DNA of 44,519 bases, from contig JAPLHW010000257.1 in assembly GCA_026389425.1 (NCBI GenBank), positions 1 to 44,519 of the forward strand, written 5' to 3'. A program made the position numbers and the translations under genes. Positions 1,637 through 31,578 of this stretch are shown one piece after another. Numbering within the stretch: the stretch's first letter is position 1; each line of letters starts with the position of its first letter. The notes under the pieces are model-generated. The model saw nothing but the letters and a program-made list of their open reading frames with translations. It searched no databases and was not told the origin of the DNA. This stretch comes from Coprothermobacterota bacterium. Lineage in GTDB: Bacteria; Caldisericota; JANLFM01.

Positions 1637-1971
1637 AGTTCGTGGCTCTTTCTCATCCCGAGTGGGTAAGGTCGTCTGATGGCAAAAAGAGGAGCGCTGC
1701 CTAGAAGGACTGGAAGTTTTATTCGAGAGAGCATTGCGACTTGACTCTCCTTGGAGAATCACATAGATAGAGTTCCTTGAAAGCGAAGTGATCATCAAGG
1801 CATTCATCAACTTTCCCCGAGGGAGCCTTTTCTGCTGTTCCGCTTACGGCAAGTCCGTTAAGGCTTACGACACGATAGAGAAGGAATGGAGGCAGCATGT
1901 TCTGGAGAATGGAGTGTTACGCCAGAGTGAGGTCGATGAGACCTCAAGAGCAAAAAGGCTTGACTATCCCT

Positions 1972-1995
1972 GGGACCGCCGCACCCCAGTGCGGC
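1972..1995 (+). repeat. REP-like hairpin element, copy 1 (GGGACCGCCGCACCCCAGTGCGGC)
   Basis: Exact match to the 24-nt consensus seen at 6 other sites. 7-bp stem GCCGCAC/GTGCGGC with loop CCCA. Flanked by 18-20-bp direct repeats GGCTTGACTATCCC(C)TGGG at 1957-1974 and 2025-2044. Confidence 0.7.
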
Positions 1996-2178
1996 ATCAA
2001 CAGTGAAGTGACGGAAGCCAACTGGGCTTGACTATCCCCTGGGGCCGACAGGACTCTTTAAGACCATCATCACCCTGATTACAGGAAAGCTGGACTAGAC
2101 GTGCTGCCGCAGGCTGGTAGGTTGCCCACTTGAAATGAGAAGGAATCAAATAAATAAATCTGTCCCCTTTTTTAGTAA

Positions 2179-2812: not shown

Positions 2813-2889
2813 ACTGCCGCTGAACACCGGCCTGACGACGCCTTCGCCCTTTGGCAACACGCTAAAAGAATGGGGTCAGGTCTTTACTA

Positions 2890-3843
2890 TTAGCATTTCG
2901 CAGTTGATGGATATTGGCCCGACAACTCCATGAAGCGGTCTGCGTATTCCGTGATCTTTTCCACCAGAGCCAACTTGGACCACCATTCCTTCGGAATCCC
3001 TCTTTCACCATAGTAGGCGCCTGCAATCTGCCCGAAGACAGCGCCGACCGTGTCTGCGTCATTCCCTAGATTCACGGCCAACAAAACTCCGTCGTGAAAA
3101 TCCAACGTCTGCTCAAATGCCCATAGGGCGGCTTCCAGCGTCTCCACCACATAGCCACTTGCCTTGATCTCGGGTGGTGCTTTCCTGCGGAATGAACCAG
3201 CAGCGATCTCAGCAATGGCCGGAGCAAGGGGTGTCCGCTGCCACAGGTCAAGGACGGGACAGAAACCGGGAGAAAGGATCACTTCTTTGGAACGGCTCTG
3301 AAGTGCGCCCACGATGAGGCCAGCAGCGTAGCGACAGGCATCCAGCGCGTCAACGGCACCGTGGGTGGTGCGAGAACTATCAGCGGCCATGGCGATGGCT
3401 TCCTCCGGCTTCTGTTCGAAAAACAGGGGTACCGGAGCCAGGCGCATCAGGGAGCCGTTGCCGGCCGAATGCAGGTCAGCCGATCCGCAAAATGGGTTCC
3501 CGCTTTCTCGGAACTGCGAAAGGGCTTCTTGTGTGGTGAGGCCAATGTCCACGCAGCGTCCGTTGCTTCCCAGGTATCCTTCCAGCATCCAGCGCAGGTA
3601 GCGCTCCATCTGGTCTTTGGGGTCAAACTCCTTACGCTCGATCAGGCTTTCAGCCAGGCACAGAGCCATCGAAGTGTCATCGGTCCACTCGCCCGCCTTC
3701 AACCGGAGCTGACCTCCACCGACCATGTCCTTAATCGGTTCAAAGCTTCCGGGATGCTGGAATTCCAATGTCGTGCCCAAGGCATCCCCCGTCGCCAGCC
3801 CCAGCAGACAACCGCGGAACCGTTCCCTCAAGTATATCTTCAT
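2890..3843 (-). CDS. ADP-ribosylglycohydrolase family protein
   Basis: Motifs GCLLGLATGDALG, EWTDDTSMAL and [23 protein letters not shown] place the start at ATG 3843 (MKIYLRERF), which forms an ATGA overlap with the stop of the upstream gene. The 45-aa Arg/Gly-rich N-terminal extension in the ORF track is probably not translated. Confidence 0.85.
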   Translation of the reverse strand: MKIYLRERFRGCLLGLATGDALGTTLEFQHPGSFEPIKDMVGGGQLRLKAGEWTDDTSMALCLAESLIERKEFDPKDQMERYLRWMLEGYLGSNGRCVDIGLTTQEALSQFRESGNPFCGSADLHSAGNGSLMRLAPVPLFFEQKPEEAIAMAADSSRTTHGAVDALDACRYAAGLIVGALQSRSKEVILSPGFCPVLDLWQRTPLAPAIAEIAAGSFRRKAPPEIKASGYVVETLEAALWAFEQTLDFHDGVLLAVNLGNDADTVGAVFGQIAGAYYGERGIPKEWWSKLALVEKITEYADRFMELSGQYPSTAKC

Positions 3844-4958
3844 GCTAGCTGGTGCCTTGCCGCCACCCCGGCTCCCCTTCTTGCCTGGCCAAGGGCGTCC
3901 GCCGCAAGCATGGCATCGAGGACTTTTCCGGGAGTGATCACGCCCGCTTCGTGATGGATGGGCTGACCGGGAGCGCACGCCTTTTCAGCAGCCTCCATTA
4001 GTTTTCGCTGGTCGGCGTTTCCAAGGCCGATGTCCGCAAGCGTGGTCGGCAAGCCGACCTCCTCGCAGAACGAGAAAACGGTTGCTGACTCGTCCGCTGA
4101 CGCGCCTGTCAGTTGGAGACCGGCCAAAACGCCAAAGGCGACTTTTTCGCCGTGGTAGAAGGAATGGGTTTCCGCCAACGCGGTGAGACCATTGTGAATG
4201 GAATGAGCCGCAGCCAACCCGGCGCTTTCAAACCCGATTCCGCTCAGCAGGATATTCGCTTCGACAATGCGTTCCAGAGCTGGCGTGACGATATTTCTCC
4301 GGCTGGCGAGTTTGGCGGCCGCGCCATAGGTCAGCAGGGTTTCATAGCAGAGTTTGGCGATGCCCAGCCCTACCGTTGTGCTATAACCGCCACACTCGTT
4401 CGCCGACTGGGTGCGCTCACAGGATCTGGCCTCGAACCATGTCGACAGCGCGTCTCCCATCCCGGCCACCAGGAACCGCGTCGGCGCTGCCGCGATGATC
4501 TCCACATCCACAAGCACAACCGCTGGGTTCGTTTTTTGATAGCATACGGAATCGAAAACCCCGTCCTTTGAGTACAGCACCGCGCACCCGCTGCACGGAG
4601 CATCGGTCGACGCGATCGTGGGGACGATGATCACCGGTATGCCCGAGCGGTCGGCGGCAATTTTCGCCGTGTCAATGGTCTTTCCTCCGCCCATGCCAAC
4701 AAGCACATCCACATGCTTTTGGGCGATGGTGGCGGACAACCGGGTTACCTCATCCTCGCAACACTCGCCGCGGAATAATTCGATGGGGATGGCCCGAGCG
4801 CTCCAATCGACACCGCATCCGGGAAGAACCTTGTCGTTCACCGAGTGCGACGCCAAGATCAACCCTTGTTTGCCCAGCAACTTTATCAGTGCGGGCAATT
4901 CGCCAATGGCGCCAACGCCTTGGATGTATTTTCCAGGAAAGACTGCTTTCTTAAACAC
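3840..4958 (-). CDS. gldA: glycerol dehydrogenase-like iron/zinc-dependent polyol dehydrogenase
   Basis: Motifs GGGKTIDTAKIAA, GDALSTWFEA, AAHSIHNGLT and HGEKVAFGVL match GldA metal/NAD motifs. Likely start is GTG 4958 (VFKKAVFPGKYIQG), 6 nt after GAGGAGG; the ORF-track start at 4982 is a TTG. Confidence 0.8.
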   Translation of the reverse strand: MFKKAVFPGKYIQGVGAIGELPALIKLLGKQGLILASHSVNDKVLPGCGVDWSARAIPIELFRGECCEDEVTRLSATIAQKHVDVLVGMGGGKTIDTAKIAADRSGIPVIIVPTIASTDAPCSGCAVLYSKDGVFDSVCYQKTNPAVVLVDVEIIAAAPTRFLVAGMGDALSTWFEARSCERTQSANECGGYSTTVGLGIAKLCYETLLTYGAAAKLASRRNIVTPALERIVEANILLSGIGFESAGLAAAHSIHNGLTALAETHSFYHGEKVAFGVLAGLQLTGASADESATVFSFCEEVGLPTTLADIGLGNADQRKLMEAAEKACAPGQPIHHEAGVITPGKVLDAMLAADALGQARRGAGVAARHQLA

Positions 4959-8933: not shown

Positions 8934-10822
8934 AACGATTGCCCATGTTAACCCTCGCTCTCACTAGCAGGGCTAAGGTTCAAAGGATTTATGCTCCCAC
9001 GCCATGGTGGCAGCATGGAAAGCCGATCGAAGACATGCAGTTGAATGAGGCCCTTGCGGTACTCCAGGCCGCAAGGTCGTGCGATATTTGCGCTATATCA
9101 ATAACAGGGGGCGATCCGTTCGCGGTTCCGGCTCTGTTGATGCCAATTCTTAAGGAGATCTCCCAGTCGACGACTGCATGGGTATCTGTTTCGATCCAAA
9201 CGTTCGGTGTATATGCTGTCACAGATCAGATATGGGAATATCTTTGTCAATGCGGCCCCGCCCTTACACTAGTTATTGAACTAGACACGATGGACTCGGC
9301 AACGTATAAGACGATTTACGGCAAGGACGCATTGAAATCGGTTCAAACATTCATTGATAATGCACGTATGCGAAACATCCACGTCAGGATCAGAACGGTC
9401 TTGACTTCCCTCAACAAAGATGCAATCACTCATATTGTCCAGTATGCGAAGGAAAAAGACTGTGACATGTTGCTCTGCGACCTCGCCACTATTATGGGAA
9501 AACGAGAACCGGTTGATTTGTTTATTCCCATCGCAACTGTCCAAGCGATAGTCACACAGAATCTCCAACCCGCAGGCTTCACGGCGAATCCCGGCGGGTT
9601 CGGCCTTCCGATCCAGATGTGGCATCTTTCGGGAAACAGATTACTTGGTCTACAGGCATCATCTTCTTCACCCCTGTATCATCCTGCATGTGCCATGTGT
9701 CAGCAGATGTGCGCAAACGGTGGTTACCCGCTCCTCATCCTGCCAGGCATGTATGTACACCTATGCAACTATAATAGCAACCATGTTGTCCCTCTAGGTG
9801 ACAATACGATCAAGAATCTCAGCCGCGTCCTCTCGGGTTTTTTAGGCCCATTTTCTACTGATACCACCTCAGAAGACAGACGCGGCGGCGGCATTCCGTC
9901 GGGTGCAACACTGCATGAACTGATCAGTCCCGTCGATCAAAACAACCAACAGCTGAAGTTCGCTGCTGATGCAATCGATCTCTCGATAGACAAAGAGTAC
10001 CGAGTGCTTAGTCCCTGGAGGCTTGGCCGGGGTATCGACGCATGGAATCTCACTCGTTGCTCCATCAGAACCCAGGATCGGATCTGGCCACTTCGAAAGA
10101 TGCCCTTATCCGGCATATGGGTTAAACCACACACAGTAGTTTACAGTGTCTCAAGAGAAACAATCACAGTCCCATCCGGGTATATCGGTTTGGTGCTCGG
10201 TCGAGCGACTTGGGCACGACTTGGTCTTCAGGTGTGTTGCGACGTAGCCAAGATTCAGTCTGGCCGAACAGGTCGCGTCCAGTTCCACCTAACGAACAAT
10301 AACAGAATGGCAATTCGTATACTTCCGTACATGTTCATCGCCCAGATCGTGTTCTTCCCGGTAACTGACGCTTATCCATTAAAAGGGGAACAGTACAACG
10401 AAGACGAAGGAGTTTACTCACCGGTGAAGGGACTCAATCTGCAACGCGAGATCGGTCCTTCCGTTCAATTTGGACGATTGATAGCAATCGAAAAAACCGG
10501 GAAAAAAAATATACTCCCTGCCCTGCTCCAAGGGGAGAACGGATCAGTAGATATTTTGAAATTGGCAGAAAGATTCGGATTGCTCAGGCACAGCAGTAGA
10601 ATGTCGGCAGCGAAAAAAAAGACATTGGCGAATCTGACCCGCGATTTAATTGGCCCAATAGTCGGTTTATTTGGCGGAATGGTAGTCTGGTTCCGAACAA
10701 ACCTCCTGTGGGCCGGTATCGTCGCATTTGTTATCATCACGGTGGTGCTTATAGTGGTTATAGTGATTTATTGGAAAACCTCAAACGTCCAAGACGACAA
10801 AGGTGACAAGAATGCTTCATGA
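8930..10822 (+). CDS. fusion protein: radical-SAM-like domain lacking the CxxxCxxC triad + dCTP-deaminase/dUTPase-fold domain + C-terminal transmembrane anchor
   Basis: Residues about 5-200 align by eye to MoaA-type radical SAM cores, but the cluster loop reads LTSRAKVQRIYAP instead of ITDxCNxRCxYCxP; also ISITGGDPF and VIELDTMDSATYKTIYGKD. Residues about 420-490 (VPSGYIGLVLGRATWARLGLQV...GRVQFHLTNNN...ILPYMFIAQIVFFPV) align to E. coli Dcd 99-163. The C-terminus LLWAGIVAFVIITVVLIVVIVIYW is a TM helix. Confidence 0.7.
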   Translation: MKRLPMLTLALTSRAKVQRIYAPTPWWQHGKPIEDMQLNEALAVLQAARSCDICAISITGGDPFAVPALLMPILKEISQSTTAWVSVSIQTFGVYAVTDQIWEYLCQCGPALTLVIELDTMDSATYKTIYGKDALKSVQTFIDNARMRNIHVRIRTVLTSLNKDAITHIVQYAKEKDCDMLLCDLATIMGKREPVDLFIPIATVQAIVTQNLQPAGFTANPGGFGLPIQMWHLSGNRLLGLQASSSSPLYHPACAMCQQMCANGGYPLLILPGMYVHLCNYNSNHVVPLGDNTIKNLSRVLSGFLGPFSTDTTSEDRRGGGIPSGATLHELISPVDQNNQQLKFAADAIDLSIDKEYRVLSPWRLGRGIDAWNLTRCSIRTQDRIWPLRKMPLSGIWVKPHTVVYSVSRETITVPSGYIGLVLGRATWARLGLQVCCDVAKIQSGRTGRVQFHLTNNNRMAIRILPYMFIAQIVFFPVTDAYPLKGEQYNEDEGVYSPVKGLNLQREIGPSVQFGRLIAIEKTGKKNILPALLQGENGSVDILKLAERFGLLRHSSRMSAAKKKTLANLTRDLIGPIVGLFGGMVVWFRTNLLWAGIVAFVIITVVLIVVIVIYWKTSNVQDDKGDKNAS

Positions 10823-14327: not shown

Positions 14328-17300
14328 CTATGCCGCTGCGTAGACGCTACGGCCGGCGCCGTAGTAGGCGTCATAGACGTGTTGAAAGATAGCGGTGGTC
14401 TTTTGCTTGAACAATTCCGACGTGTAGGCTCTCGGCAAGCCCTGGTCCAGCATTTTCTCGATGGTTACCCGCACCTCGGCGCGGGCTTGCTGGCGTTTGC
14501 GCCAATCCAACACCAGTTTCCCCGCTTTAAGCGTGGCCAATAGCTTTCGGGCCGTGGCCTTCACCTTTTCCCGGTCCATCTCGCTCATCTCAATCTGTGG
14601 CTTGGTCAAGAGGTCAAAGAGCGCCAGCTCTTCTTCGTTTAATTGTTCGCCCACGCCCCGCTTCTCTTCTTCATTCAGGCTCTGGGCGAAGGCCGTCAGT
14701 TGCTGGAAGAACTCCTCAGCGTTGAGGCTGCCTGCGTTGTAAGCGTCGATCATCGCCTGGAAGCGCTCCAGGTAATCCATGCGAGTACGGTTGAGCCGCA
14801 CCATGGTCATCAGCTTCTGCGCCACTGCGCCCTTCAGTCTTTCGTTGAACGTGCGCTTGTGGCCTGTCTTGAATTTCTCGGCCAGCTTCTCGAAGTCAAT
14901 TTTGCTCAGGTCAATCCACCGCTCGTCGCTGTAGGGTACGCCCGCCTCCCGGATGATGTATCCTTCCGTGGCGATGGAGCGATCGAGTAGCTCTTCCGCC
15001 TGCTGCATGACCTGAGAGATGTCCACCGGGGGCGTGAGGGCGCGGATTTTGTCAGCGATTACCAGCAAGAGCTTTACCTCAGCAGCGAAAGACTGGGCGT
15101 CCGAGTCGGGCAGTACAGCTTGGTAGAGCCGCTGCACAGTATTGGCCTGATCAAGATAGCGGCGTTTGATCTCCTCGGACCCCACCAATGCCTCCACGGC
15201 GTCATCGAGCAGCCCGACGCGCATAAATCCATTAGCGGTCTGGATAGCTGTAAGTTTCACCCCTTGTTCCCGACACATGCCCCGTGTTTCTTCCAACGCC
15301 TGCCGCAACGCCGCCACTAATGCGGACTTATCTTCCACCGGCTTGTTGCCGCCGCCGCCCGCGCCATAGATGGCCAGCGCCCGTTCCAGGTTGCGGAACA
15401 CCCCGGCATAGTCCACGATCAGGCCGCTCACCTTGCCGGGATAGACCCGGTTAGCTCGGGCGATGGTCTGCATCAATGTGTGGTTGCGCATCGGCTTGTC
15501 GAGGTAAAGGGTGGAACAGCTCGGCACATCGAAGCCGGTCATCCACATGGCGCAGACAAACACCAGCCGGAAGGGGTCGTCCGGGTCCTTGAACTTCGTC
15601 TCCAGGTCTTCCTCCACCATGCGCTTGCGGTGCGGGCGAATATCCAACCCCTTCTTTTTCATCTCGTCGATTTCGTTCTGGCCCTGAGAAACCACCACCG
15701 CCATATCGGCCTCTTTCATCCGGGCGATGCGCTCTTCAAGCTCTCGCCGGATATCGCCGACGACACCAGCACGTTCCAGCTGTGAGGTCGCGATCTTGGC
15801 CCTCCAGTGCTTCTTCACCTTGTCGTACATGCGGATGGCCGTGGCCTTGTCGATGCACACCACCATGGCCTTGCCCTGAAAACCTCGCCCGGTGAAATGC
15901 TCCACCAGGTCTTTGGTCACCGCCTCCAACCGCTCATCGCGCGTGATCAGGTGGTACTCGCGGGCGAACTCCCGCTCCAACCTCGTTTCCTGTGCCTCGT
16001 CCAGTTCCGCCTCTTCCAGCAGGCGCTCCATGTCCTGGTTGAGGTTCTCGTTGACCAGTTGCAGTTCCGGGATGCGATTCTCGTAGTAGAGCGGCACCGT
16101 GGCGCCGTCGACAACCGATTGCTGGAAATCGTAGACGCTGGTGTAGTCGCCGAAGACCTGGCGGGTCTTCTCCTCGCCCACGATCAGAGGTGTACCGGTA
16201 AAAGCCAGAAAAGCGGCGTTGGGCAGAGCCGTGCGCATGTTCAGCGCCAGGGTGTCGTACTGGCTGCGATGGGCCTCGTCAGTGATAACGATGATGTCCC
16301 GCCGCTCGGAGAGCACCGGGTGCACCTCGCCCTGCTCGGTGCGGAACTTGTGGATCAGGGTGAAAACATAGCGGTGATCCTCCCTGAGCAACTGGCGCAA
16401 GTGCCTGCTGCTTTCCGCCTGGGTGTGACCTTCGGTTACCACTCCCGCTGATGCGAAGTGCTTGTAGATCTGCCCGTCCAGCTCCTGCCGGTCGGTGATC
16501 ACCACAAAGGTCCAGTTTCCTGGCACTTTGCGCAGCACCTTCTGGGCGAAGAACATCATGGAGACACTCTTCCCGCTGCCTTGAGTATGCCAGAACACCC
16601 CCAGCTTACCCTCCCGCTGGCGGATGTCGGCCAGGGCCTCCAGCGCGTTATTGACGCCCAGGTACTGGTGATTCTTGGCCATCAGCTTGATCAGTCCTCC
16701 GGGCGCTTCCTGGAACAGGGTGAAGTTCTCCACCAGGTCCAACAACCGCTTCGGTTCGCAGACGCGCAACATGGTCTGCAGTGAGACCCGGCCTGTTTCG
16801 TCCTCGCTGTCTACCTTCTTCCACTCGGCGAAGTGTTCCCATCCCGCAGTGATGCTGCCCATCCGGCTCTGGCTGCCGTTGGAGACGATGACCAAGGCGT
16901 TGGGCCAGAAAAGCTGGGGCACGGTGTCCTTGTAGTCGCGTATATTGCCGGTGAAAGCGGTCTCCAGGTGGCGGTGGGCAGCCTTCAGTTCGATCAGGAC
17001 AAGGGGTAGGCCGTTGACGAATCCCACCAAGTCGGCACGGCGGGTGTGCATCTCACCGGTGACCCAGAACTGCGAGCAGAATAGAAAGTCGTTGTTGGCC
17101 GGGTGATCCCAATCGATCACCCGCACCACCTCCACCGTCTCCTCATCCCCTTCGGGATCGGGAATGGATACGCGCACGCCGTTCTTCATCAGGTGGTAGA
17201 CCTCACGATTGGCGGCCGCTGCACTCATGCGCGAGCGGTCGCGGATCAGCTCCTCGATGGCCTGGCGAATCGCATCAGACGGGGTATCCGGGTTCAGCCG

Positions 17301-17480
17301 CTGCAGAGCCGGACGAAGGCGGGCGGTGAGGATCACCTCAGCCTTGGTCTCACGGCCCAGCGCGCTGGCGCCGTGGTCGAACTCGTGATAGGCGTTGAGC
17401 GTCTCCCAGCCCAGCTCTGCCAGCAAAGCGATGGCCGGTTGCTCGATCAAGGCGTCTTCGCTGTAGCTGCTGGGAGTCAT
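14328..17480 (-). CDS. hsdR: Type I restriction enzyme, R subunit
   Basis: 1050 aa. N-terminus SEDALIEQPAIALLAELGWE, Walker A TQGSGKS, DEAH box ITDEAHRSQ, motif VI QTIARANR. Confidence 0.95.
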   Translation of the reverse strand: MTPSSYSEDALIEQPAIALLAELGWETLNAYHEFDHGASALGRETKAEVILTARLRPALQRLNPDTPSDAIRQAIEELIRDRSRMSAAAANREVYHLMKNGVRVSIPDPEGDEETVEVVRVIDWDHPANNDFLFCSQFWVTGEMHTRRADLVGFVNGLPLVLIELKAAHRHLETAFTGNIRDYKDTVPQLFWPNALVIVSNGSQSRMGSITAGWEHFAEWKKVDSEDETGRVSLQTMLRVCEPKRLLDLVENFTLFQEAPGGLIKLMAKNHQYLGVNNALEALADIRQREGKLGVFWHTQGSGKSVSMMFFAQKVLRKVPGNWTFVVITDRQELDGQIYKHFASAGVVTEGHTQAESSRHLRQLLREDHRYVFTLIHKFRTEQGEVHPVLSERRDIIVITDEAHRSQYDTLALNMRTALPNAAFLAFTGTPLIVGEEKTRQVFGDYTSVYDFQQSVVDGATVPLYYENRIPELQLVNENLNQDMERLLEEAELDEAQETRLEREFAREYHLITRDERLEAVTKDLVEHFTGRGFQGKAMVVCIDKATAIRMYDKVKKHWRAKIATSQLERAGVVGDIRRELEERIARMKEADMAVVVSQGQNEIDEMKKKGLDIRPHRKRMVEEDLETKFKDPDDPFRLVFVCAMWMTGFDVPSCSTLYLDKPMRNHTLMQTIARANRVYPGKVSGLIVDYAGVFRNLERALAIYGAGGGGNKPVEDKSALVAALRQALEETRGMCREQGVKLTAIQTANGFMRVGLLDDAVEALVGSEEIKRRYLDQANTVQRLYQAVLPDSDAQSFAAEVKLLLVIADKIRALTPPVDISQVMQQAEELLDRSIATEGYIIREAGVPYSDERWIDLSKIDFEKLAEKFKTGHKRTFNERLKGAVAQKLMTMVRLNRTRMDYLERFQAMIDAYNAGSLNAEEFFQQLTAFAQSLNEEEKRGVGEQLNEEELALFDLLTKPQIEMSEMDREKVKATARKLLATLKAGKLVLDWRKRQQARAEVRVTIEKMLDQGLPRAYTSELFKQKTTAIFQHVYDAYYGAGRSVYAAA

Positions 17481-18217
17481 ACTTGCGGCTCCTTTCCGCT
17501 CTTGTTAAGGACTGCACGACCAGCCGGGGTGGTGCGGTATCGCTGCTCCGGGCTGCGAGGCTTATCGGGGAAGGTCATTTCGACAAGGCCCATCTCTAGG
17601 GCTGGTTTGAGGTAGCGCTCTTCGAAATTTGCTCTTCCTTTTAACTCCAACGCCGCCTGGATCTCCACGCGCGTCATCTCTCTCGACATGATTTCCAGCA
17701 TCTTCAAGACCTCGACAGTAACTTGCCCTGCGACTTGCCCTGCGACTTGTGGGGTACTTGGGGGGTACATGTGCGGCACATGTGCGGTGGATTCCAGCGT
17801 CTCATGAGCCTTTTCATGGGCTTGAACTTGGTGCTGACTTGGTGCCAATTTGGTGCCAATTTGTGCGGTCTTCGGTTCCTCTAGGGCTCCCGCCTGCGCC
17901 CGCACCTCCGGATTCGGATGGAAGATCGCAGTGAAAAAGCCGTTTTCCTCGAAGATCGGCGCCGGACAGCGTTGCTCGCGCGCCTCCTCGCGCATGCGCT
18001 TGATCCCGGTTCCGGCCTTCTCGATGAAAGTGATGCGGTGGAGCAGGTCAGCAATAAGGGCATTGCGGCGGATGCTCTTCCGGCCGAGGTCGGAAAACTT
18101 CATCCCCTTGGGCAGGCCGCCGGGGCTGGATATCTCGATCCTATCTGTGTAGATCTCAACAAAAACATTGGCGCCTTCACCCTCCTGGAGCAGGATGTCG
18201 AGATCAGTAGCTTTCAT
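17477..18217 (-). CDS. HATPase_c_4 / winged-helix regulator-like protein (the family often mis-named RecG-like), apparently shortened
   Basis: IEISSPGGLPKGMKFSDLGRKSIRRNALIADLLHRITFIEKAGTGIKRMREE plus a C-terminal wHTH-like region. Strong SD AAGGAGG before ATG 18217 and an ATGA-type 4-nt overlap with the hsdR start. Lacks the N-terminal AlbA_2 domain expected in full-length relatives. Confidence 0.65.
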   Translation of the reverse strand: MKATDLDILLQEGEGANVFVEIYTDRIEISSPGGLPKGMKFSDLGRKSIRRNALIADLLHRITFIEKAGTGIKRMREEAREQRCPAPIFEENGFFTAIFHPNPEVRAQAGALEEPKTAQIGTKLAPSQHQVQAHEKAHETLESTAHVPHMYPPSTPQVAGQVAGQVTVEVLKMLEIMSREMTRVEIQAALELKGRANFEERYLKPALEMGLVEMTFPDKPRSPEQRYRTTPAGRAVLNKSGKEPQV

Positions 18218-18317
18218 ACTTCGGCCTCCTTGGGAGTATTCAAGCCTACTCGCCCTCGATACTGGAAAGCCAAGCGAAATGTCTGCGAGCTTCGTTCATT
18301 CCACTTCCGCCGCTCCT

Positions 18318-18341
18318 GGGATCGCCGCACCCCAGTGCGGC
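18318..18341 (+). repeat. REP-like element, copy 2 (GGGATCGCCGCACCCCAGTGCGGC)
   Basis: One mismatch to consensus; 35 nt downstream of the RAYT stop. Confidence 0.7.
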
Positions 18342-18375
18342 ATCCTCATTTGGATTTCTTCTCATCCTTTCCATT

Positions 18376-19038
18376 TTAATCTTTCGCACTACTCCACAGC
18401 CAATCCTCTGGTTTTGTTACCAACCCGGCTTTCACGGGGTTCATGACAATGTATTCTCGCGTTGCCATAAAGTGACCTTCGTCTCGGATGAAACGATCCC
18501 AGTACTCCCGATGCCAAATCCGGGACCGCCGCACCCCAGTGCGGCTCATATTCTCATTGATCCACCGCGCCGTATAGTTCTTCCACGACAATACGATCTT
18601 CCCCAAAGGGATACCCTCGCGCGGTTCAATCATTACATGACAATGGTTAGGCATCACAACCCACTGCAACAGGCGGTAACGCTCCCCGTCAAACCGAAGC
18701 CACGTATCTACCACACAAGCGGCGACATCAGGTTTTCGTAAAACGCAGGAACCATGACCTGCATCCAAAAAGGCCTCGATCTTCCGTCGCAGTTGCGTCT
18801 CGCGCGCATCGCGATTCCGGACTTCTTCCTTCAATTCTGCTTGCATTTGTTCCAATGCCGATTGTGGTAGTGAATCAGCCAGACGGTAGGTGATGTGTTG
18901 GATAGCATGTGCTGTATCGAAGTGGGGCAAATAGCCGCGGGAGTACCACCCTCGGGCTGGTTGCTCCCCAGAACGGTAGGCTTCCGTCTGTTCACTGCTG
19001 TTGCCGCACTGGGGTGCGGCGGTCCCAGGGACGGTCAT
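18376..19038 (-). CDS. REP-associated tyrosine transposase (RAYT, IS200/IS605-like Y1 HUH enzyme)
   Basis: SRGYLPHFD, HUH motif MPNHCHVMI, catalytic Tyr region TREYIVMNPVKAGLV. Flanked by inverted REP copies at 18318 and 19003. ATG 19038 overlaps the hsdS stop (ATGA). Confidence 0.85.
   Translation of the reverse strand: MTVPGTAAPQCGNSSEQTEAYRSGEQPARGWYSRGYLPHFDTAHAIQHITYRLADSLPQSALEQMQAELKEEVRNRDARETQLRRKIEAFLDAGHGSCVLRKPDVAACVVDTWLRFDGERYRLLQWVVMPNHCHVMIEPREGIPLGKIVLSWKNYTARWINENMSRTGVRRSRIWHREYWDRFIRDEGHFMATREYIVMNPVKAGLVTKPEDWLWSSAKD
18522..18545 (+). repeat. REP-like element, copy 3, inside the RAYT coding sequence
   Basis: Exact 24-nt consensus; translated on the minus strand as ...SRTGVRRSRI... 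Confidence 0.7.
19003..19026 (-). repeat. REP-like element, copy 4, encoding the RAYT N-terminus
   Basis: GCCGCACTGGGGTGCGGCGGTCCC is the reverse complement of the consensus. It encodes residues GTAAPQCG of MTVPGTAAPQCGNSS. Confidence 0.7.
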
Positions 19039-20216
19039 GTAATCTCCTCGGGAATGGTGATTTCCAGTTCCGACACATCCACCTCGCCGGAGATGAGCCG
19101 GGGCAGCAGCAGGTCGCGAGTACGGCGGAGGGTGGTGTTTTTACGAATCAGAGAAATGACTAGATCCGACGCGGGCGTAGCCAGAGAATCAAAAGCTTCT
19201 GCAATAGAATCCGGTGGCGCAACAGTTGGCTGAGCCAAGAAGTCTCCAGGCTTGAGTCGTTTATGGCTAGTGGATGTGCCGTCTGCGCGCCCTGCAAGTT
19301 TTTCTACCATTTCCGGATTATTGAATAGCCCATAATAAAATGCCGTTGAGTACTTCTTCGGCTCAAGAATAAGATACTCGGTTGAGGCTATGGAACGGAG
19401 GTCGTTGCTCGGTCTTGGTAGCCATACCCTGGGGATATGCGGGTTCAGTTTCGGAACCAATACACAATCAATCGGGACTTCATATTTCCCACTTCTAATG
19501 GTCTGACCTTTTTCAACCGCAGGAAGTTTGCCTGAATCGAATGCAGGAAAACTGAAGTGTTCGAAAAGTTCATTTGGAAAATTCTGCGGTTGAACGCTTT
19601 TTCGACAGAGATTGACAATATCCCCCAACGCAGCTACTTCCCAGCCCTCCGGGATGAGGCCGAGGGGGGAATCGGTGAAGCGGGCGTGCTGGTGGCCGGG
19701 GAAGCGGAACTTGACGAACCACTCGCGGTAGAGGTTCTGCGCCATCTTCTCCAGAATTTTAATCCGCCGCAGGTTGTTCTCGATCAGGTCGTCGTAGGCC
19801 GAGAGAATCGCCGCGATTTTGGCTTGTACTGGTAAACTCGGGAAACGTATCCTCAAACCATAGAGGTAGTTGCGATTAAGTGAAGGCTGTGCACTGCCAG
19901 AATTGAAAGACGCGAAATCAATACTATCGAGTAGGTAATAAACAAAACGCGGATGATTGTCCTTGAAGTCCTTCACATAAAGAACAGTATTATGAGGCCA
20001 ATAGGCGCGTGATGTGTAGTGCGCCTTGCCAAAAGAAGCACCGCTTCTCCCAATTACAACACCGGGGCCACCAGTTTTAGCAGAATCATGGTAACCATTG
20101 ATTCCAGCAGAACCAAGAACTGGAATAGTCCCTGGTCGCCTCTGCTGTTCTGGCAAGTCGTGCCCTCTCTGTAGAGTTATGACCTCACCGAGAGTAATGT
20201 CTCGCCAACTCATCAC
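19035..20216 (-). CDS. hsdS: Type I R-M specificity subunit
   Basis: Two target-recognition domains separated by the conserved spacer LPVQAKIAAILSAYDDLIENNLRRIKILEKMAQNLYREWFVKFRFPG. C-terminal NTTLRRTRDLLLPRLISGEVDV. Start is GTG 20216 or ATG 20213. Confidence 0.9.
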   Translation of the reverse strand: MMSWRDITLGEVITLQRGHDLPEQQRRPGTIPVLGSAGINGYHDSAKTGGPGVVIGRSGASFGKAHYTSRAYWPHNTVLYVKDFKDNHPRFVYYLLDSIDFASFNSGSAQPSLNRNYLYGLRIRFPSLPVQAKIAAILSAYDDLIENNLRRIKILEKMAQNLYREWFVKFRFPGHQHARFTDSPLGLIPEGWEVAALGDIVNLCRKSVQPQNFPNELFEHFSFPAFDSGKLPAVEKGQTIRSGKYEVPIDCVLVPKLNPHIPRVWLPRPSNDLRSIASTEYLILEPKKYSTAFYYGLFNNPEMVEKLAGRADGTSTSHKRLKPGDFLAQPTVAPPDSIAEAFDSLATPASDLVISLIRKNTTLRRTRDLLLPRLISGEVDVSELEITIPEEIT

Positions 20217-20262
20217 TTCCCCTCCAGCAGCTTCACCACATTCTCGGCGATCTGTTCTTCCC
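20213..20262 (-). repeat. duplicate of the last ~50 nt of hsdM, fused to the YhcG-like ORF
   Basis: Aligns at about 80% identity with 21346..21395. It encodes ...EQIAENVVKLLEGK versus the HsdM C-terminus ...[14 protein letters not shown]. Confidence 0.7.
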
Positions 20263-21346
20263 GGGACCGCCGCTCCCCAGAGCGGCTCTCTTCGCCTCTC
20301 TCGCTACAATTGCTGCACTGGGATGCGGCAGCCCCAGACATTTCCAGCCGCCCCCGAGCCAGGACAATCGCCCGATGCAATTTCTCCCGCAGCAATTCCT
20401 TAGGCGGCAGGGAAGTGAGGTATTCAGCGACATGGATGCCCGAACTGCCTAATTCCAGCAGTTCGATCTGTTCCTCTTTCTTGCCAGCGCAGAGGATCAT
20501 GCCGAGCGGCGCCTGCTCGCCCTGTTTGCGCTCGTATCTATCCAGCCAGCGCAGGTACAGCTCCATCTGCCCCTTATGCTCGGGCCGAAACTTGTCCAGC
20601 TTCAGCTCGATGGCCACCAAACGGCGCAAATCTCGGTGGAAGAATAGCAAGTCCAGGTAGAAATCATCCTCATCGACAGTAATCCGCTTCTGTCGGGCGA
20701 CAAAGGAGAAGCCGATGCCCAACTCCAGGATGAAGGCTTCCATCTCGCGGATGATGGCCGCCTCCAGGTCTTTTTCCTGAAACGCGCCGGTGAGTCCGAG
20801 GAAATCGAGGAAATAGGGATCGCGGAAGACCAGATCGGGGGTGAGCCTGTCCTCGTCCCGAAGCGCGTCGAGTTCGATCCGGGCCAGTTCTTCAGGTTTT
20901 TTGGAGAGGGCGGTGCGCTCGTAGAGCATGGAGGCGATCTTCTGCCGCAAGGTGCGGACGCTCCAGCGTTCGATACGGCACATTTCAGCATAGAAGTCTT
21001 TTTGCAGAGGGAGCTTAAGGTAGATGATCTCCTTGAAATGGGACCAACTCAATTGTCTCGACAGCGTAGAGACAATTGGTTCATTAGGAAACGCCTCGAA
21101 AAAGTGCATCATGTGGTGGATGTTTTTCGCTGAAAATCCGCTTCCATATTCCGTCATCAATAGTCTCGACAGCGTAGAGACAATCTGTTCGCCGTATTCC
21201 GCCCGCTCGCCCTTGAGAATCTCTTCCCTGATCCGCTTGCCGATGCGCCAGTAGAGCAAGGTCAGGGCTGTGTTGACCGTGGCAGCCACGCCCTGGCGCG
21301 TCTCTTCGATCATCCGGCGGAGATCATCGAGAAGCGGACGCGACAT
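20213..21346 (-). CDS. YhcG/DUF1016-type PD-(D/E)xK nuclease-like protein with chimeric C-terminus
   Basis: TALTLLYWRIGKRIREEIL, QLSWSHFKEII, FYLDLLFFHRDLRRLVAIELK (D...ELK). TAATG coupling to the hsdM stop and GTGATGA coupling to the hsdS start. The last ~45 aa are encoded by a REP pair plus the hsdM-tail duplicate. Confidence 0.8.
   Translation of the reverse strand: MSRPLLDDLRRMIEETRQGVAATVNTALTLLYWRIGKRIREEILKGERAEYGEQIVSTLSRLLMTEYGSGFSAKNIHHMMHFFEAFPNEPIVSTLSRQLSWSHFKEIIYLKLPLQKDFYAEMCRIERWSVRTLRQKIASMLYERTALSKKPEELARIELDALRDEDRLTPDLVFRDPYFLDFLGLTGAFQEKDLEAAIIREMEAFILELGIGFSFVARQKRITVDEDDFYLDLLFFHRDLRRLVAIELKLDKFRPEHKGQMELYLRWLDRYERKQGEQAPLGMILCAGKKEEQIELLELGSSGIHVAEYLTSLPPKELLREKLHRAIVLARGRLEMSGAAASQCSNCSERGEESRSGERRSREEQIAENVVKLLEGK
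20263..20286 (+). repeat. REP-like element, copy 5 (variant with compensatory stem change)
   Basis: GGGACCGCCGCTCCCCAGAGCGGC: the stem GCCGCTC/GAGCGGC keeps pairing through a double substitution. Confidence 0.65.
20312..20335 (-). repeat. REP-like element, copy 6 (degenerate, inverted partner of copy 5)
   Basis: GCTGCACTGGGATGCGGCAGCCCC, 4 mismatches to the reverse-complement consensus. Confidence 0.5.
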
Positions 21347-22947
21347 TACTCCCCCTCCAGCAACTTGGCCACATTCTCGGCGATGCGATCTTCCAGTTCC
21401 CGCGCCTCGGCGTTGAGAGTTTCCAGTTCCTCGTTCTGCTCCTGTAGCCGCGCCTTGAAGTCGAAGTCGTCCTCAACATGGGCGGTTACGCCCACATAGC
21501 GGCCGGGGTTGAGGCTGAAGCCCTGGGTTTCGATCTCGGCCAGCGTCGCCACCTTGCACAGCCCCGCCACATCGATATATTTGCCATCGGGGAAGTATTC
21601 AGCCACCAGACCGGCGCTGTCGTGCAAGTTTTCGACATCTCCGCCTCGGTAGAAGCGGGCAATATTAGCCAGGAACTCGATCTGGGCCGGGGTCCAGTCG
21701 CGGTGAGCGCGGTCGATCTGACGGTAGAGGTGGCGGGCATCGATAAATAACACGGTGTCGGCGCGGCGGGTGTTGGTTTTGCCGCACTGGGGTGCGGCGA
21801 TCCCAGGCCCCAGTGCGGCAGTCGTGCTTTTGCCGCGGTCGAAGAACCAGAGGATGCAAGGAAGGGTCACGGTATAGAAGAAGTTGGAGCCGACAGCCAC
21901 CATCACATCCACGGCGCGGGCCTCGATGAGTTGCCTGCGGATCTCCAGTTCCGAGCCTCGGGCATCGGAGGCGGAATTGGCCATGACGAATCCGGCTCGG
22001 CCAGTTTCATTTAAAGAACTGTAGAAAAGCTGGATCCAGAGGTAGTTGGCGTTGTCCGTGCGGGGCAGGCCGAAGGGAAAGCGTGGGTCGTCCTTCAGCC
22101 GGTCCTTGTCCACCCGGTCCACATTGAAGGGCGGATTGGCCATGACGAAGTCGAACTTGCCGGTGGAGCGGTGCAGGTCCTCGTAGTAGGCGTTGCCCTC
22201 GCGGATGTCGCCGGCCAGGCCGTGCACGGCCAGGTTCATCTTGCCCAGGCGCACGGTCTCGGCCACCTTCTCCTGGCCATAGACGCTCAGTTCGGTGTCG
22301 GGGTTCCTCTTGTGCTCCTCGACAAAGCGGGCGCTCTGCACAAACATCCCACCAGAGCCACAGGCCGGGTCGAAGATGCGGCCGTGAAAGGGTTCGATAA
22401 TACCGACGATGAGCTGGACAATGGCGGTGGGGGTGAAGAACTCGCCACCTTTCTGGCCCTCGCTCATGGCGAATTGACCAAGAAAATATTCATAAATCTT
22501 GCCGAAGGCGTCCCCCTCGATGTCCATGGGAACCGAATTCATGGTCTTCAGCAGTTCCTTAAGCAGGGTGTTCTCGAAACGGTTATAGCTCTTGGGCAGG
22601 ATATCCCTCAGATCGGGATTCTCCGCCTCGATGGCGCGCATCGCCTCGTTGATGGCTGCGCCGATGTTGGCACCTTCAGGTAGCTTAATCAGCGCCGAGA
22701 AGCGCGCCGCCTCAGGTAGATAGAGTACACCTTTGGCTTGATAGTCCGCCGGGCCGATGGTGCGTCGCCCGCTGCTGGTGCCCTCCAGCTCCATTGCCGC
22801 TGCCTGGAATTTGTAGTCGGCATAGCGTAGAAAGACCAGCCCCAGCACCGGGACGGAGTACTCTGAGGACTTCAGTTTGGAGTTAGCGCGCAGTTCATCC
22901 GCTGCGTCCCACAAACGGGCTTCGATGTTGTTGCCGCTATGATTCAT
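21346..22947 (-). CDS. hsdM: Type I R-M N6-adenine DNA methyltransferase subunit
   Basis: HsdM N-terminal domain ([14 protein letters not shown]...LGLVFLRY), motif [11 protein letters not shown], motif IV NPPF. SD GGAGG before ATG 22947. Carries an in-frame REP insertion at 21781-21819. Confidence 0.95.
21781..21819 (-). repeat. REP-like element copy 7 plus half-copy, in frame inside hsdM
   Basis: GCCGCACTGGGGTGCGGCGATCCC + AGG + CCCCAGTGCGGC. Translated as ...[17 protein letters not shown]... between LWFFDRGKS and [12 protein letters not shown]. Confidence 0.7.
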
Positions 22948-23101
22948 GGCTTCTTCCTCCCCGGTTCTTCATGGATTCTCTTCTGCGTCTCCTCCGGATC
23001 GCGAACGCTCACCAAAGTGCAAACTCTGCGCTCATCACATGATACCAGTTTAGGCAGAAAGGAAACCCGGACTTCAAAGCCATGGTGTCGTTTCTTCCAA
23101 G

Positions 23102-23707
23102 TCAAGGACGAGTGGATGATTCATCGAACATTCCCTTCTTTTCGGCCAGGCCCTCGATCATCTCCCGGGCTTTCTTAGCATTATCAGGATCAGGGAGAGT
23201 GCGATAATTGGTTCGCAGCGCCTCAATCTCTTTCCTGAAACCAGGAGGCAAGGCCGCTTCTTCCTGAGCTCGCCTCAGCTCCTGTTCATACATGCGCATG
23301 AACTGGGGACGCGCGTGGGCTGGATCAGCCATGGCAAATTCGCGGACCCCGAAGTGCTCCAGGGTGCGTCGGACAAGGGGGTGCAAGTCCTCGTATCCTT
23401 CCGCTTCCCAGTGATCATCGAAGAAGACAGCATCGCCGATGCACCTCGAGGCTTTTCCATAGGCCTCGGCAGGGGTGAGGTTGCGTTCCTGGACGATTTC
23501 CAGGGCGGCTCCTCTGATCTCGGCGTAAGAAGGGGAGAAAGGTTTGCCAGTAAAGAGCAACTTCTGGACTGCTATCTTGGCTACCTCAAGGGGTATCTCC
23601 TCCAGCACTTTGGCCCAGATAGCCAGGGTGCCTGTGCTCATCTCCGGGGCATTGTTCCAGGCCTGAGCGATCAAGGTCAGCAGATCCCTCACTTCTTGTT
23701 TAGTCAT
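23102..23707 (-). CDS. phage-type replicative helicase loader/inhibitor-like protein (G39P-like N-terminus)
   Basis: MTKQEVRDLLTLIAQAWNN...WAKVLEEIPLEVAKIAVQKLLFTGKPFSPSYAEIRG resembles the G40P loader/inhibitor family. 4-nt overlap with the upstream gene. Confidence 0.55.
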   Translation of the reverse strand: MTKQEVRDLLTLIAQAWNNAPEMSTGTLAIWAKVLEEIPLEVAKIAVQKLLFTGKPFSPSYAEIRGAALEIVQERNLTPAEAYGKASRCIGDAVFFDDHWEAEGYEDLHPLVRRTLEHFGVREFAMADPAHARPQFMRMYEQELRRAQEEAALPPGFRKEIEALRTNYRTLPDPDNAKKAREMIEGLAEKKGMFDESSTRP

Positions 23708-29820: not shown

Positions 29821-31578
29821 CTATTCCACTGCTTTGCCGCAGCTCATGCAGAAGCGTGAGCCGGGGACCAAGGGGTTACCGCACGCTGCGCAGAGGGTCG
29901 GTGCAAGGTTCTCCACATCCTTCGCTACTTCTTCCACCACGGCCGGCGAAGCGGCAGTGATAGGCTCGACGATGGGCGGGGGGACTGTTTCGACAACCAG
30001 CGGAGGGACAGGAACAGGCTCAACGACTGGTGGAGGTGGAATTGGAATCGTGACTGCCGCAGGGGGCGGGGGGGGCGATGTGGGGCGTGTTGTCACGGTC
30101 TGCCCCTGAGCAGCGCCGCAGGTCGCGCAGAATGGCGCGCCGGCTAGTACCGGTGCCCCGCAGCTTGGGCAGAAACGGGCGCCCGCTGTCGGGGGAGGGG
30201 GAAGGGATGCGGGGGGAGCCCCGTAAGGTGTCCCGGGGGGAGAGGTGGGGGGAGCCCCATAGGGCGTACTGGAGGGAGAGGTGGGAGGAGCCCCATAGGG
30301 TGTCCCGGAGGGAGGCGCGGGCGGGCGGCGTTTGCCTCGCAGCAACAAGAACAGTATCAAGACCACCAATACAGCTCCGCCGGCAATGGCGGCAATCGCC
30401 CAAATCGGTAGCCCACTGCTCGGCGTACCGCCTGGCACTGGGGTAGAGGTTGGAACGGGAATGGTGGTAGGATTCGGTCCCGAAGGAGAGGGCGAGGGCT
30501 GGGTGGTGGGAGGCGGAGGTGGGGTATCGGTGGGGACCGGCGTGGTAGGCTTCGGCGTGGGCGTAGCGGTGGGGGTGGGCGGGGAAGTGGGAGTGGGTTT
30601 CGGCGTGGGCGAGGAGGTGGGGGTGGGAGAAGCGCTTAAGGAGAAGATCACCTCGGTGGTATCGCCTGAAGAAAAGACAATGGTGCTGGCGTCGAGTTGC
30701 GTTCCCACAAGGGAATTGGTGATTTCGCCGGGAAGGTGGATGGTGGTTTCCGTGAAAGTCTCGGAAAGGTAGCCAAAGTCGACCTGCACGCTGTTCCCGG
30801 AAGCTACCCAGGTGCCCGGGTCAAAGGCCATCTCGAAGTCGCTCCATTTGAAGGCGATCTCGTACCGGTCCCCGCCCAGGCTCTTCTTGCTGACATCGCT
30901 GAAGGTGGGCTCGCTCTGGAGGCTGGAGACCATATCCTCGACTGTATTGCCGCCGGGAGGCAAGTAAGCCGTGATGGTGGCTCTGCCGCTCCCATCGGCG
31001 TTGACCCACAGTTCGACATCGTACGTCTCTAGACCCGCTGTTGGGGAGGAAGAGGGGGAAGAGGTCGGAGAGGGAGCCGCACCACTCGTGCTGAAGGAGA
31101 AGGTGGCCGTCGACCCTCCCTTGAAGGAGAGTGTGGAATTGTCCACTTTGGTCCCGCCCTGCTGTTGGAGGATCGTTCCGGGCAGGTGCAAGATCAACTC
31201 GGTGAAGGAGTCCACCATAGTGCTAAAGTCACCCTCCACCGTATCCCCGTTGTTCGTCCAGCTGTTGGGGTCGAAGGCACCAAAAAAATCGCTCCAGGTA
31301 AAGTTGATCTGATAACGGCCACCTCCTTGATCGATCTTCTCCACTCCGGAGAGGGCGGGCTCACTGTTGAGGCTGTTCACCAGATCATCGATGTTTTCCG
31401 TGTTTCCGGCGGGGATGTAGACGTGCATCTGTCCCGTCCCGCTGCCGCTTACCTCCAGCCACAACTCCATGGCAATAGTGGTGTCTGCTGCTGCAGCGGG
31501 CAGCATTGTCCCAAAGAGCGCAAAGACACAAACCAGGGTGATCACTACAGCGCGGAACAAACCCGCGTATCTTTTCAT
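29821..31578 (-). CDS. single-pass membrane protein: duplicated extracytoplasmic domain, Pro/Thr linker, TM helix, Pro-rich repeats and two zinc ribbons
   Basis: Signal peptide MKRYAGLFRAVVITLVCVFALFG. Two ~130-aa paralogous modules (ELWLEVSGSG.../ELWVNADGSG...). PT-rich linker, TM IWAIAAIAGGAVLVVLILFLLL, 3x TPYGAPP(T/A)S, and CPSCG...CATCG and CAACG...CMSCG. SD AAGGAGG. Confidence 0.8.
   Translation of the reverse strand: MKRYAGLFRAVVITLVCVFALFGTMLPAAAADTTIAMELWLEVSGSGTGQMHVYIPAGNTENIDDLVNSLNSEPALSGVEKIDQGGGRYQINFTWSDFFGAFDPNSWTNNGDTVEGDFSTMVDSFTELILHLPGTILQQQGGTKVDNSTLSFKGGSTATFSFSTSGAAPSPTSSPSSSPTAGLETYDVELWVNADGSGRATITAYLPPGGNTVEDMVSSLQSEPTFSDVSKKSLGGDRYEIAFKWSDFEMAFDPGTWVASGNSVQVDFGYLSETFTETTIHLPGEITNSLVGTQLDASTIVFSSGDTTEVIFSLSASPTPTSSPTPKPTPTSPPTPTATPTPKPTTPVPTDTPPPPPTTQPSPSPSGPNPTTIPVPTSTPVPGGTPSSGLPIWAIAAIAGGAVLVVLILFLLLRGKRRPPAPPSGTPYGAPPTSPSSTPYGAPPTSPPGTPYGAPPASLPPPPTAGARFCPSCGAPVLAGAPFCATCGAAQGQTVTTRPTSPPPPPAAVTIPIPPPPVVEPVPVPPLVVETVPPPIVEPITAASPAVVEEVAKDVENLAPTLCAACGNPLVPGSRFCMSCGKAVE

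Follow-up and report, generated by a model that had tools for sequence, protein, structure and literature searches.

Introduction

Repetitive extragenic palindromes (REPs) are defined by their extragenic location, and their spread is poorly understood. Here we describe a REP that lies in frame inside hsdM, the methyltransferase gene of a type I restriction-modification (R-M) operon, in a stretch of 44,519 nucleotides from a Coprothermobacterota bacterium (contig JAPLHW010000257.1 of assembly GCA_026389425.1; the whole stretch is hereafter called the window), where the gene for a REP-associated tyrosine transposase (RAYT) is part of the same operon. The closest described systems are intragenic REPs, the Rickettsia palindromic elements (RPEs) and the REPIN/RAYT systems (REP doublets forming hairpins, together with their RAYT).

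In-frame intragenic REPs have been catalogued as single elements or dimers that add approximately 7–50 amino acids to a protein, and their location in loops or linkers was the argument for regarding them as neutral (Di Nocera, De Gregorio and Rocco, 2013, BMC Genomics 14:522; PMC3733652). Among the entries in the supplementary table of this catalogue is Oter_3011, an N-6 DNA methylase from Opitutus terrae with a REP dimer, and the same authors use a GTAG or CGTC tag at one end of the palindrome to define REP superfamilies (PMC3733652). An earlier reading of the window, made by a model from the letters and their open reading frames (ORFs) only and referred to here as the sequence-only reading, implied a novelty that this published catalogue shows to be overstated. 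As summarised in PMC3733652 and PMC3184786, RPEs are selfish palindromes in frame in coding genes, whose hosts remain functional and which place their peptide on the protein surface (Ogata et al., 2000, Science 290:347). REPIN/RAYT systems are described as extragenic, and their RAYTs as mostly vertically inherited (PMC5581495).

Results

The REP in hsdM is an in-frame insertion

The sequence-only reading had placed a full REP plus a half REP at 21781–21819 (GCCGCACTGGGGTGCGGCGATCCCAGGCCCCAGTGCGGC in plus-strand letters) within hsdM, as a loop of 15–18 amino acids inserted in frame between the motifs LWFFDRGK and VLFIDAR. Alignment with orthologues upholds the insertion and sets its length at 17 amino acids, the translation agrees with the one given in that reading, and the repeat indeed consists of one 28-nt unit and a 13-nt inverted arm. 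The features concerned are the following.

21346–22947, reverse strand: hsdM, type I R-M methyltransferase subunit of 533 amino acids, with HsdM_N and N6_Mtase domains and with motif I (DPACGSGG) and motif IV (NPPF) intact
21766–21816, reverse strand: insertion of 17 codons (51 nt) in hsdM as compared with the consensus of the empty site, HsdM residues 378–394
21780–21807, forward strand: full 28-nt REP unit TGCCGCACTGGGGTGCGGCGATCCCAGG, with an inner 7-bp hairpin (GCCGCAC-TGGG-GTGCGGC)
21808–21820, forward strand: partial REP arm of 13 nt, CCCCAGTGCGGCA, which follows the full unit directly and repeats its first 13 nt in inverted orientation

Among the 120 closest HsdM proteins, which are 79–87% identical and carry labels from many phyla, approximately 100 are 516–517 amino acids long and read LWFFDRGK-xKTx-RADxVLFIDAR. 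The 23-residue spacing of uninserted HsdM is found in 70 of 80 species-representative loci, and in total approximately 170 close orthologues do not carry the extra residues and read GK(R)KTA/RAD (slashes mark junctions here and below). At the DNA level, the empty site reads GGC AAG CGC AAG ACC GCC / CGC GCC GAC, and the window reads ...ACT GCC / GCA CTG GGG CCT GGG ATC GCC GCA CCC CAG TGC GGC AAA ACC AAC ACC CGC / CGC GCC GAC. Bases common to the target (ACCGCC.GC) and the REP flank (ACCGCCGC) leave the junctions uncertain by approximately 3 nt. These alignments confirm the segment 21766–21816 as a true in-frame REP insertion. The opposite polarity, an ancestral segment deleted elsewhere, was ruled out, since the segment is lacking in these orthologues and in a sister family of HsdM, and since dispersed copies of the REP have the identical DNA sequence. 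A candidate target-site duplication (GGCAAAAGCACGAC against GGCAAAACCAACAC, 11 of 14 positions) was rejected as weak, being partly REP stem and absent in the orthologous locus L004; to our knowledge, Y1 transposases make no target-site duplications.

The family to which the repeat belongs has a unit of the form TGCCGCACTGGGGTGCGGCGRTCCCAGG, with a length of approximately 28 nt. The window contains seven copies of its 18-nt core, GCCGCACTGGGGTGCGGC, with at most 2 mismatches (starting at 1978, 18324, 18528, 19003, 20269, 20312 and 21781), compared with 0.07 copies expected and with 0 of 100 shuffles reaching seven, and the unit at 21780–21807 is 100% complementary to the copy at 18315–18342. 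In four metagenomes, the word depth at 21756–21812 is hundreds of times that of the flanks, pointing to a high-copy repeat. The element is thus a short, GC-rich, imperfect palindrome in many copies, as found in REP/RAYT systems. None of the tags GTAG, CTAC, CGTC and GACG stands consistently beside the seven copies in the window, and the presence of copies inside hsdM, in the tail of a DUF1016 gene and within the RAYT ORF departs from the extragenic location by which REPs are defined. The arm at 21808–21820 pairs with 21780–21792 to form a perfect 13-bp stem with a 15-nt loop, and the hairpin folds at −19 kcal/mol as DNA (z −4.6 to −5.4) and at −48.2 kcal/mol over 101 nt as mRNA (z = −3.5). A REPIN is a pair of complete, inverted REPs with a short spacer between them. 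The window has one full unit and the 13-nt inverted arm, and full doublets are present in the same loop in L085, L090 and L086. The unit is free of stop codons in all six frames. Rfam gave zero matches across 17000–23500, and a terminator scan flagged nothing at the hsdM REP on the coding strand, so a role as transcription terminator was dropped.

The array varies in length between relatives, and the gene remains intact

Three loci (L001, L002 and L003) are syntenic with the window, sharing its AbiEii, MFS, ParE, CinA and LigT neighbours as well as a DUF1016 gene between hsdM and hsdS. Their hsdM genes have the same junctions as that of the window and contain 2.5 and 3.5 REP units, with inserts of 39 and 52 amino acids, compared with 1.5 units and 17 amino acids in the window. 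In X1 and X5, two of the runs from lake and sediment samples, a loose end at 21788 fits a longer array, so that alleles of more than one length are present together in these samples. All these differences are multiples of three (17, 39 and 52 amino acids here; 19–47 in other orthologues), unlike the frame-shifting alleles that characterise phase-variable R-M systems, and no indels were found in the contigs aligned to the locus.

The inserted hsdM is intact, transcribed and under purifying selection. The HsdM_N and N6_Mtase domains are matched in Pfam with E-values of 4e-20 and 7.6e-80, and D193, A195, G197, G200 and N271–F274 fall in invariant columns of the HsdM alignment. The frame, which the sequence-only reading had taken to be open, shows no frameshift: Logan contigs from independent DNA runs (X1 over 21758–21988 and X5 over 21779–22041) and a metatranscriptome (RNA) contig (X9 over 21654–22001) match the locus with 0 differences and no gaps, and a partial protein from a second metagenome-assembled genome (MAG), P0368, has the same 17-amino-acid architecture. 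The ratio of nonsynonymous to synonymous substitution rates (dN/dS) between REP-bearing hsdM genes is 0.078 for the window and L001, 0.073 for the window and L002, and 0.088 for L001 and L002 (dS 0.36–0.82), and it is 0.073 for the uninserted orthologues L005 and L006. Provided that the insert was inherited in the three syntenic relatives, which the shared junctions suggest, these ratios point to normal purifying selection on the gene since the insertion.

The insert is predicted to lie in a β-hairpin turn

We modelled HsdM with AlphaFold. The first run, on 38 close homologues, reached a mean predicted local distance difference test score (pLDDT) of 51.7; its alignment was too shallow and the model was left unused. 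The second run, for which the sister family around Protein Data Bank (PDB) entry 3khk was added to the alignment, gave a pLDDT of 74.7 and a predicted template modelling score (pTM) of 0.72, and the best structural matches of this model are HsdM structures, namely 3khk (E = 1.5e-29), PacII (7vs4/7vru), 3lkd and EcoR124I. The insert coincides with the sole long low-confidence segment of the catalytic half (residues 378–393, pLDDT <50; mean pLDDT 30 in the block 381–390), which is located between the strands E364–370 and E398–403. In the model, the insertion site is thus the turn of a β-hairpin that closes the methyltransferase domain. The structure 3khk aligns across the loop with a shorter turn rich in lysine/arginine, and in its sister family the turn varies in sequence and has small (4-amino-acid) indels, with zero repeat inserts among the 114 sequences. 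The loop goes unmentioned in the paper on the PacII structure.

Different repeats recur in the same turn

The same REP family recurs at this turn in several other hsdM genes, where its arrangement varies. Two direct units are present in L004 (P0015). The insert of L085 (P0025), P0034 and L090 is a complete inverted doublet, REPIN-like and with compensatory stem changes. L086 (P0102) combines a left part like that of the window with a long spacer and an inverted REP, and P0017, P0050 and P0068 show yet other arrangements. When compared without the loop, the REP-bearing proteins do not cluster, and their nearest neighbours are uninserted (e.g., P0034 and P0078, which are 95.6% identical).

Repeats of other families are found in the same turn. 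The insert PPRPAGEGPGVRG is present in nine closely similar sequences, six of which are labelled Anaerolineae (L087), other hairpin repeats occupy the turn in L064 (Anaerolineae), L065 (Pirellula), L073 (Bacteroidota) and L079 (Pelobacter), and L055 has another repeat; the insert of L051 looks like a simple tandem duplication instead. The inserts of these other families fold at −27 to −66 kcal/mol and several of them recur elsewhere in their own loci, and for these families the independence of the insertions is clear. Inserts of at least 4 amino acids are present in the turn in approximately 25 of 201 aligned sequences, compared with approximately nine in a second variable stretch (core 423–438) and a handful elsewhere. 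The chance of 8 of 20 independent events falling in a 5-residue span of 516 is, by a post hoc calculation, ~1e-11. Within the loop, the insertion points scatter over 3–4 codons and do not fall on one nucleotide. These data bear out part of what the sequence-only reading had proposed as a possible rearrangement hotspot, in that the array varies at the site, a longer allele coexists, and the loop has been hit repeatedly across phyla.

The second variable stretch (window residues approximately 440–455) is also insertion-prone, more weakly so, with inserts in P0015, P0068, P0102, L015, L045, L047 and L073, some of them repeat-like (e.g., TSGRGAGGEG). The hsdM of L073, a Bacteroidota MAG, has one repeat family, encoding LTPxPSPKGR-like peptides, in frame at three or four loops (core 214, 262, 373 and 423).

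The RAYT and REPs in other coding sequences of the operon

Downstream of hsdM the genes follow on the same strand, with overlapping stops and starts, and include hsdS and hsdR, as expected for an hsdM operon. The features of the operon, and the REP copy outside it, are listed here.

20213–21346, reverse strand: DUF1016/YhcG PDDEXK nuclease gene, inserted between hsdM and hsdS, whose 3′ end contains a duplicated hsdM 3′ end and, in frame, a pair of inverted REPs
20260–20289, reverse strand, and 20305–20338, forward strand: two degenerate inverted REPs in the DUF1016 tail, translated as ...SGAAASQCSNCSERGEESRSGERRSRE...
19035–20216, reverse strand: hsdS, specificity subunit
18376–19038, reverse strand: RAYT, Pfam Y1_Tnp, within the operon; homologues are annotated as RayT or REP-associated tyrosine transposase
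17477–18217, reverse strand: truncated gene with HATPase_c_4 and Fic-like C-terminal domains (AlbA_2/HATPase_c_4/Fic-like), adjoining the RAYT
14328–17480, reverse strand: hsdR, restriction/translocase subunit, completing the type I operon
1969–1998, reverse strand: lone REP copy away from the operon, the sole such copy in the window, with 62-nt surroundings (1961–2022) that resemble the RAYT 5′ region

Inverted REP arms flank the RAYT at 18310–18342 and 19002–19034 (91% complementary), the arrangement that is typical of the Y1 (HUH) RAYTs of REP/RAYT systems, and six of the seven REP copies in the 44.5 kb lie within 3.5 kb of this gene. At the 5′ end of the RAYT ORF the upstream REP is read as PGTAAPQCG, and nearly all homologue ORFs begin PGxAAPQCG. 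The REP thus encodes AAPQCG at both hsdM and the RAYT N-terminus, as had been noticed in the sequence-only reading, and a comparison of the repeats bore out that hsdM carries the same REP family as flanks the neighbouring RAYT. A further REP inside the RAYT ORF (18519–18548) is read as SRTGVRRS, and internal REPs of this type are present in 1–3 copies at the same spot in the RAYT homologues P0122–P0150 (50–77% identity). The REP pair in the DUF1016 tail is in frame as well; L001 shares this pair, and the orthologue in L002 and L003 lacks it. In addition, HsdR contains an in-frame REP at one identical linker position in L004 (15401–15427, CRTGVRRS) and L090 (~10367, GRTGVRRS), which is absent from the window, L001, L085 and L024. 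A RAYT lies within the type I operon in six loci (the window, L004, L085, L009, L024 and L090), in four of them directly between hsdS and hsdR, and two further RAYTs of the clade are located elsewhere (L088 and L089).

In L090, too, the RAYT adjoins a truncated AlbA_2/HATPase_c_4/Fic-like gene, and the RAYT may have disrupted this gene both there and in the window; a phage integrase and ParDE stand beside the L090 operon. The surroundings of the lone REP (1961–2022) are 89% complementary to 18976–19037, and a nearby 430-nt duplication (1213–1641 and 2869–3298, 84–85% identity) overlaps the 3′ part of an ADP-ribosylglycohydrolase gene (2890–3978). The end of the DUF1016-type gene copies the 3′ end of hsdM (20211–20275 and 21344–21408, ...IAENVxKLLEGx, 78% nucleotide identity), and in L009 a different ORF between hsdM and hsdS (9212–10663) also ends with a copy of the hsdM 3′ end. 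This duplication of the coupled hsdM/hsdS junction suggests that cassettes were inserted here. HsdM proteins 80–87% identical to that of the window are found in MAGs labelled Desulfomonilia, Syntrophales, Armatimonadota, Chlorobiaceae, Acidobacteriota, Anaerolineae and Bathyarchaeota, a distribution that points to a very wide horizontal spread of the operon. Lastly, a zinc-ribbon ORF elsewhere in the window (29821–31578) has G-rich tandem repeats within its coding sequence at 30206–30627, with periods of 36 nt and 18–39 nt.

Discussion

We favour, at a probability of roughly 0.7, the explanation that the hsdM REP is selfish DNA tolerated in a permissive surface loop of an HsdM that is predicted to be functional. 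A REP of the family served by the RAYT of the same operon, consisting of a unit and a 13-nt arm in REPIN-like arrangement, would have been inserted at the turn of the β-hairpin closing the catalytic domain, presumably mobilised by that RAYT. Its survival would have depended on a REP without a stop codon in any frame, on a length of 51 nt, which is a multiple of three, and on a loop that is surface-exposed, variable and unstructured. HsdM would thereby have gained a flexible 17-residue loop rich in Ala, Pro and Gly and stayed functional, and we infer that this loop is neutral for the function of the enzyme. The element would then behave as tolerated selfish DNA, with a copy number that shifts between relatives (1.5, 2.5 and 3.5 units) and with only in-frame versions seen, in an array that would turn over locally at the hsdM site. 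The recurrence of inserts is probably due mainly to this loop being the most permissive place in an otherwise highly constrained gene, so that selection would be the cause of the hotspot; the proximity of the RAYT and the short match between target and REP may add a bias for this particular REP family.

Several observations weigh against this explanation. The AAPQCG-type inserts are scattered, requiring 9 changes by Fitch parsimony on a poorly resolved neighbour-joining tree, which for this family does not discriminate between several gains and a single old insertion with later losses. Metatranscriptomic RNA contigs may also include carried-over DNA. Furthermore, the left junction ACT GCC/GCA C is common to the window, L004 and L085 despite the differing architectures to its right, and the target, ACCGCC(C)GC, shares microhomology with the REP flank GGGACCGCCGCAC; both would also fit a sequence-directed insertion. 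The hotspot could accordingly arise at the DNA level, if the RAYT, or replication or repair acting on hairpins, preferred a GC-rich site near the RAYT that resembles the 5′ flank of the REP. The clustering of REPs round the RAYT and the identical position of the HsdR REP in L004 and L090 would be in line with such targeting. However, the unrelated repeats of Anaerolineae, Pirellula, Bacteroidota and Pelobacter, presumably moved by other enzymes, lie in the same loop and are spread over 3–4 codons, L009 and L024 have an uninserted hsdM despite an adjoining RAYT and REPs, and in L073 the repeat is present in several other loops of HsdM. The scattered insertion points, the multi-loop repeats of L073 and the uninserted genes of L009 and L024 favour a filter by selection that lets inserts persist only if they are in frame, free of stops and located in the most permissive loop, and we regard DNA-level targeting as an unlikely, if still serious, explanation of the hotspot.

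It is considerably less probable that the insert is adaptive, either through an altered HsdM surface that evades anti-restriction proteins or tunes the assembly with HsdR, or through an mRNA hairpin that tunes translation or stability of the operon transcript. The stable 13-bp stem, the persistence of the insert in a gene under purifying selection and the conservation of the last REP unit between relatives, with a dS of ~0.7 elsewhere, could be taken as signs of such a function. Yet conservation of the REP is equally explained by recognition by the RAYT or by recent turnover, the peptides inserted in different lineages are unrelated, the number of copies is freely variable, and most orthologues have no insert at all; moreover, the loop is predicted to be disordered, and the coding strand gave neither a terminator-like signal nor an Rfam match.

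The REP array is very unlikely to act as a phase-variation switch, in which gain or loss of non-triplet units would toggle hsdM and with it the whole system: relatives do differ in its length and the same samples also contain a longer allele, but every allele differs by a multiple of three, the aligned contigs show zero indels, and the units (28–66 nt, irregular) are unlike the simple-sequence repeats of contingency loci. An assembly artefact or a dead gene can practically be dismissed, for although high-copy REPs with such word depth can misassemble, several contigs from independent runs and the RNA contig span both junctions with 0 differences, P0368 has the same architecture and L001–L003 the same junctions, and dN/dS is ~0.08.

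With the tolerated selfish element as our preferred explanation, the locus offers a case in which REP units can be traced codon by codon through their insertion, expansion and perhaps loss, against hundreds of near-identical empty orthologues and with the presumed mobilising RAYT 2.7 kb away in the same operon. The loop would be a natural permissive site of a widespread HsdM family and as such useful for tagging or engineering, and the case illustrates that repeat-derived segments can go unnoticed when defence genes in MAGs are annotated. Going further, we tentatively propose, and hold it to be rather doubtful in this full form, that the turn of this horizontally moving HsdM family is a cross-phylum landing pad for hairpin repeats, and that a RAYT clade with REPs in its own ORF rides in the type I R-M operon between hsdS and hsdR, seeding REPs into hsdM, hsdR, the DUF1016 gene and new hosts. 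If this were true, the link between RAYT and R-M system would challenge the view of RAYTs as purely vertically inherited, domesticated genes, the defence operon would be a vehicle for the spread of REP/RAYT systems, and the locus would be a natural system that reads gain and loss of REPs as in-frame protein length variants.

Comparison with known systems

We found no description of one loop hit across phyla by unrelated repeats, of in-frame variation in array length, of REPs inside a RAYT ORF, or of a RAYT in a widely shared type I R-M operon. The window HsdM has its domain order, fold and motifs in common with the solved proteins 3khk (M. mazei), PacII M1/M2 (7vs4) and EcoR124I (7bst), none of which has a repeat-derived insert at the loop. 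The catalogued intragenic REPs (PMC3733652) resemble the hsdM case in being short RAYT-type palindromes in frame in genes, and differ from it in that the hsdM REP is without a GTAG or CGTC tag, has its RAYT in the same operon, is located in a loop that was hit in many lineages and varies in array length; also, the insert lies at the β-hairpin turn at residue 378, compared with residues 444–496 in Oter_3011. RPEs are 100–150 nt long, unrelated in sequence to the hsdM REP, without a known dedicated RAYT and confined to Rickettsia, so that the likeness is one of mode of action and not of membership: in hsdM, too, the frame is kept, the host gene is under selection and the insert is, according to the model, at the surface. 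There is also a likeness to the REPIN/RAYT systems (Bertels and Rainey, 2011; Bertels et al., 2017, PMC5581495), which have a single RAYT flanked by inverted REPs and inverted doublets that form long hairpins, as do the hsdM inserts of L085 and L090. The differences are that REPs are here inside coding sequences, including the RAYT ORF, and that the RAYT is located in a type I R-M operon whose HsdM is ~85% identical across phyla. By its copy number, its hairpin and the flanked RAYT, the hsdM REP is part of a REP/RAYT system, one that is untagged and not extragenic.

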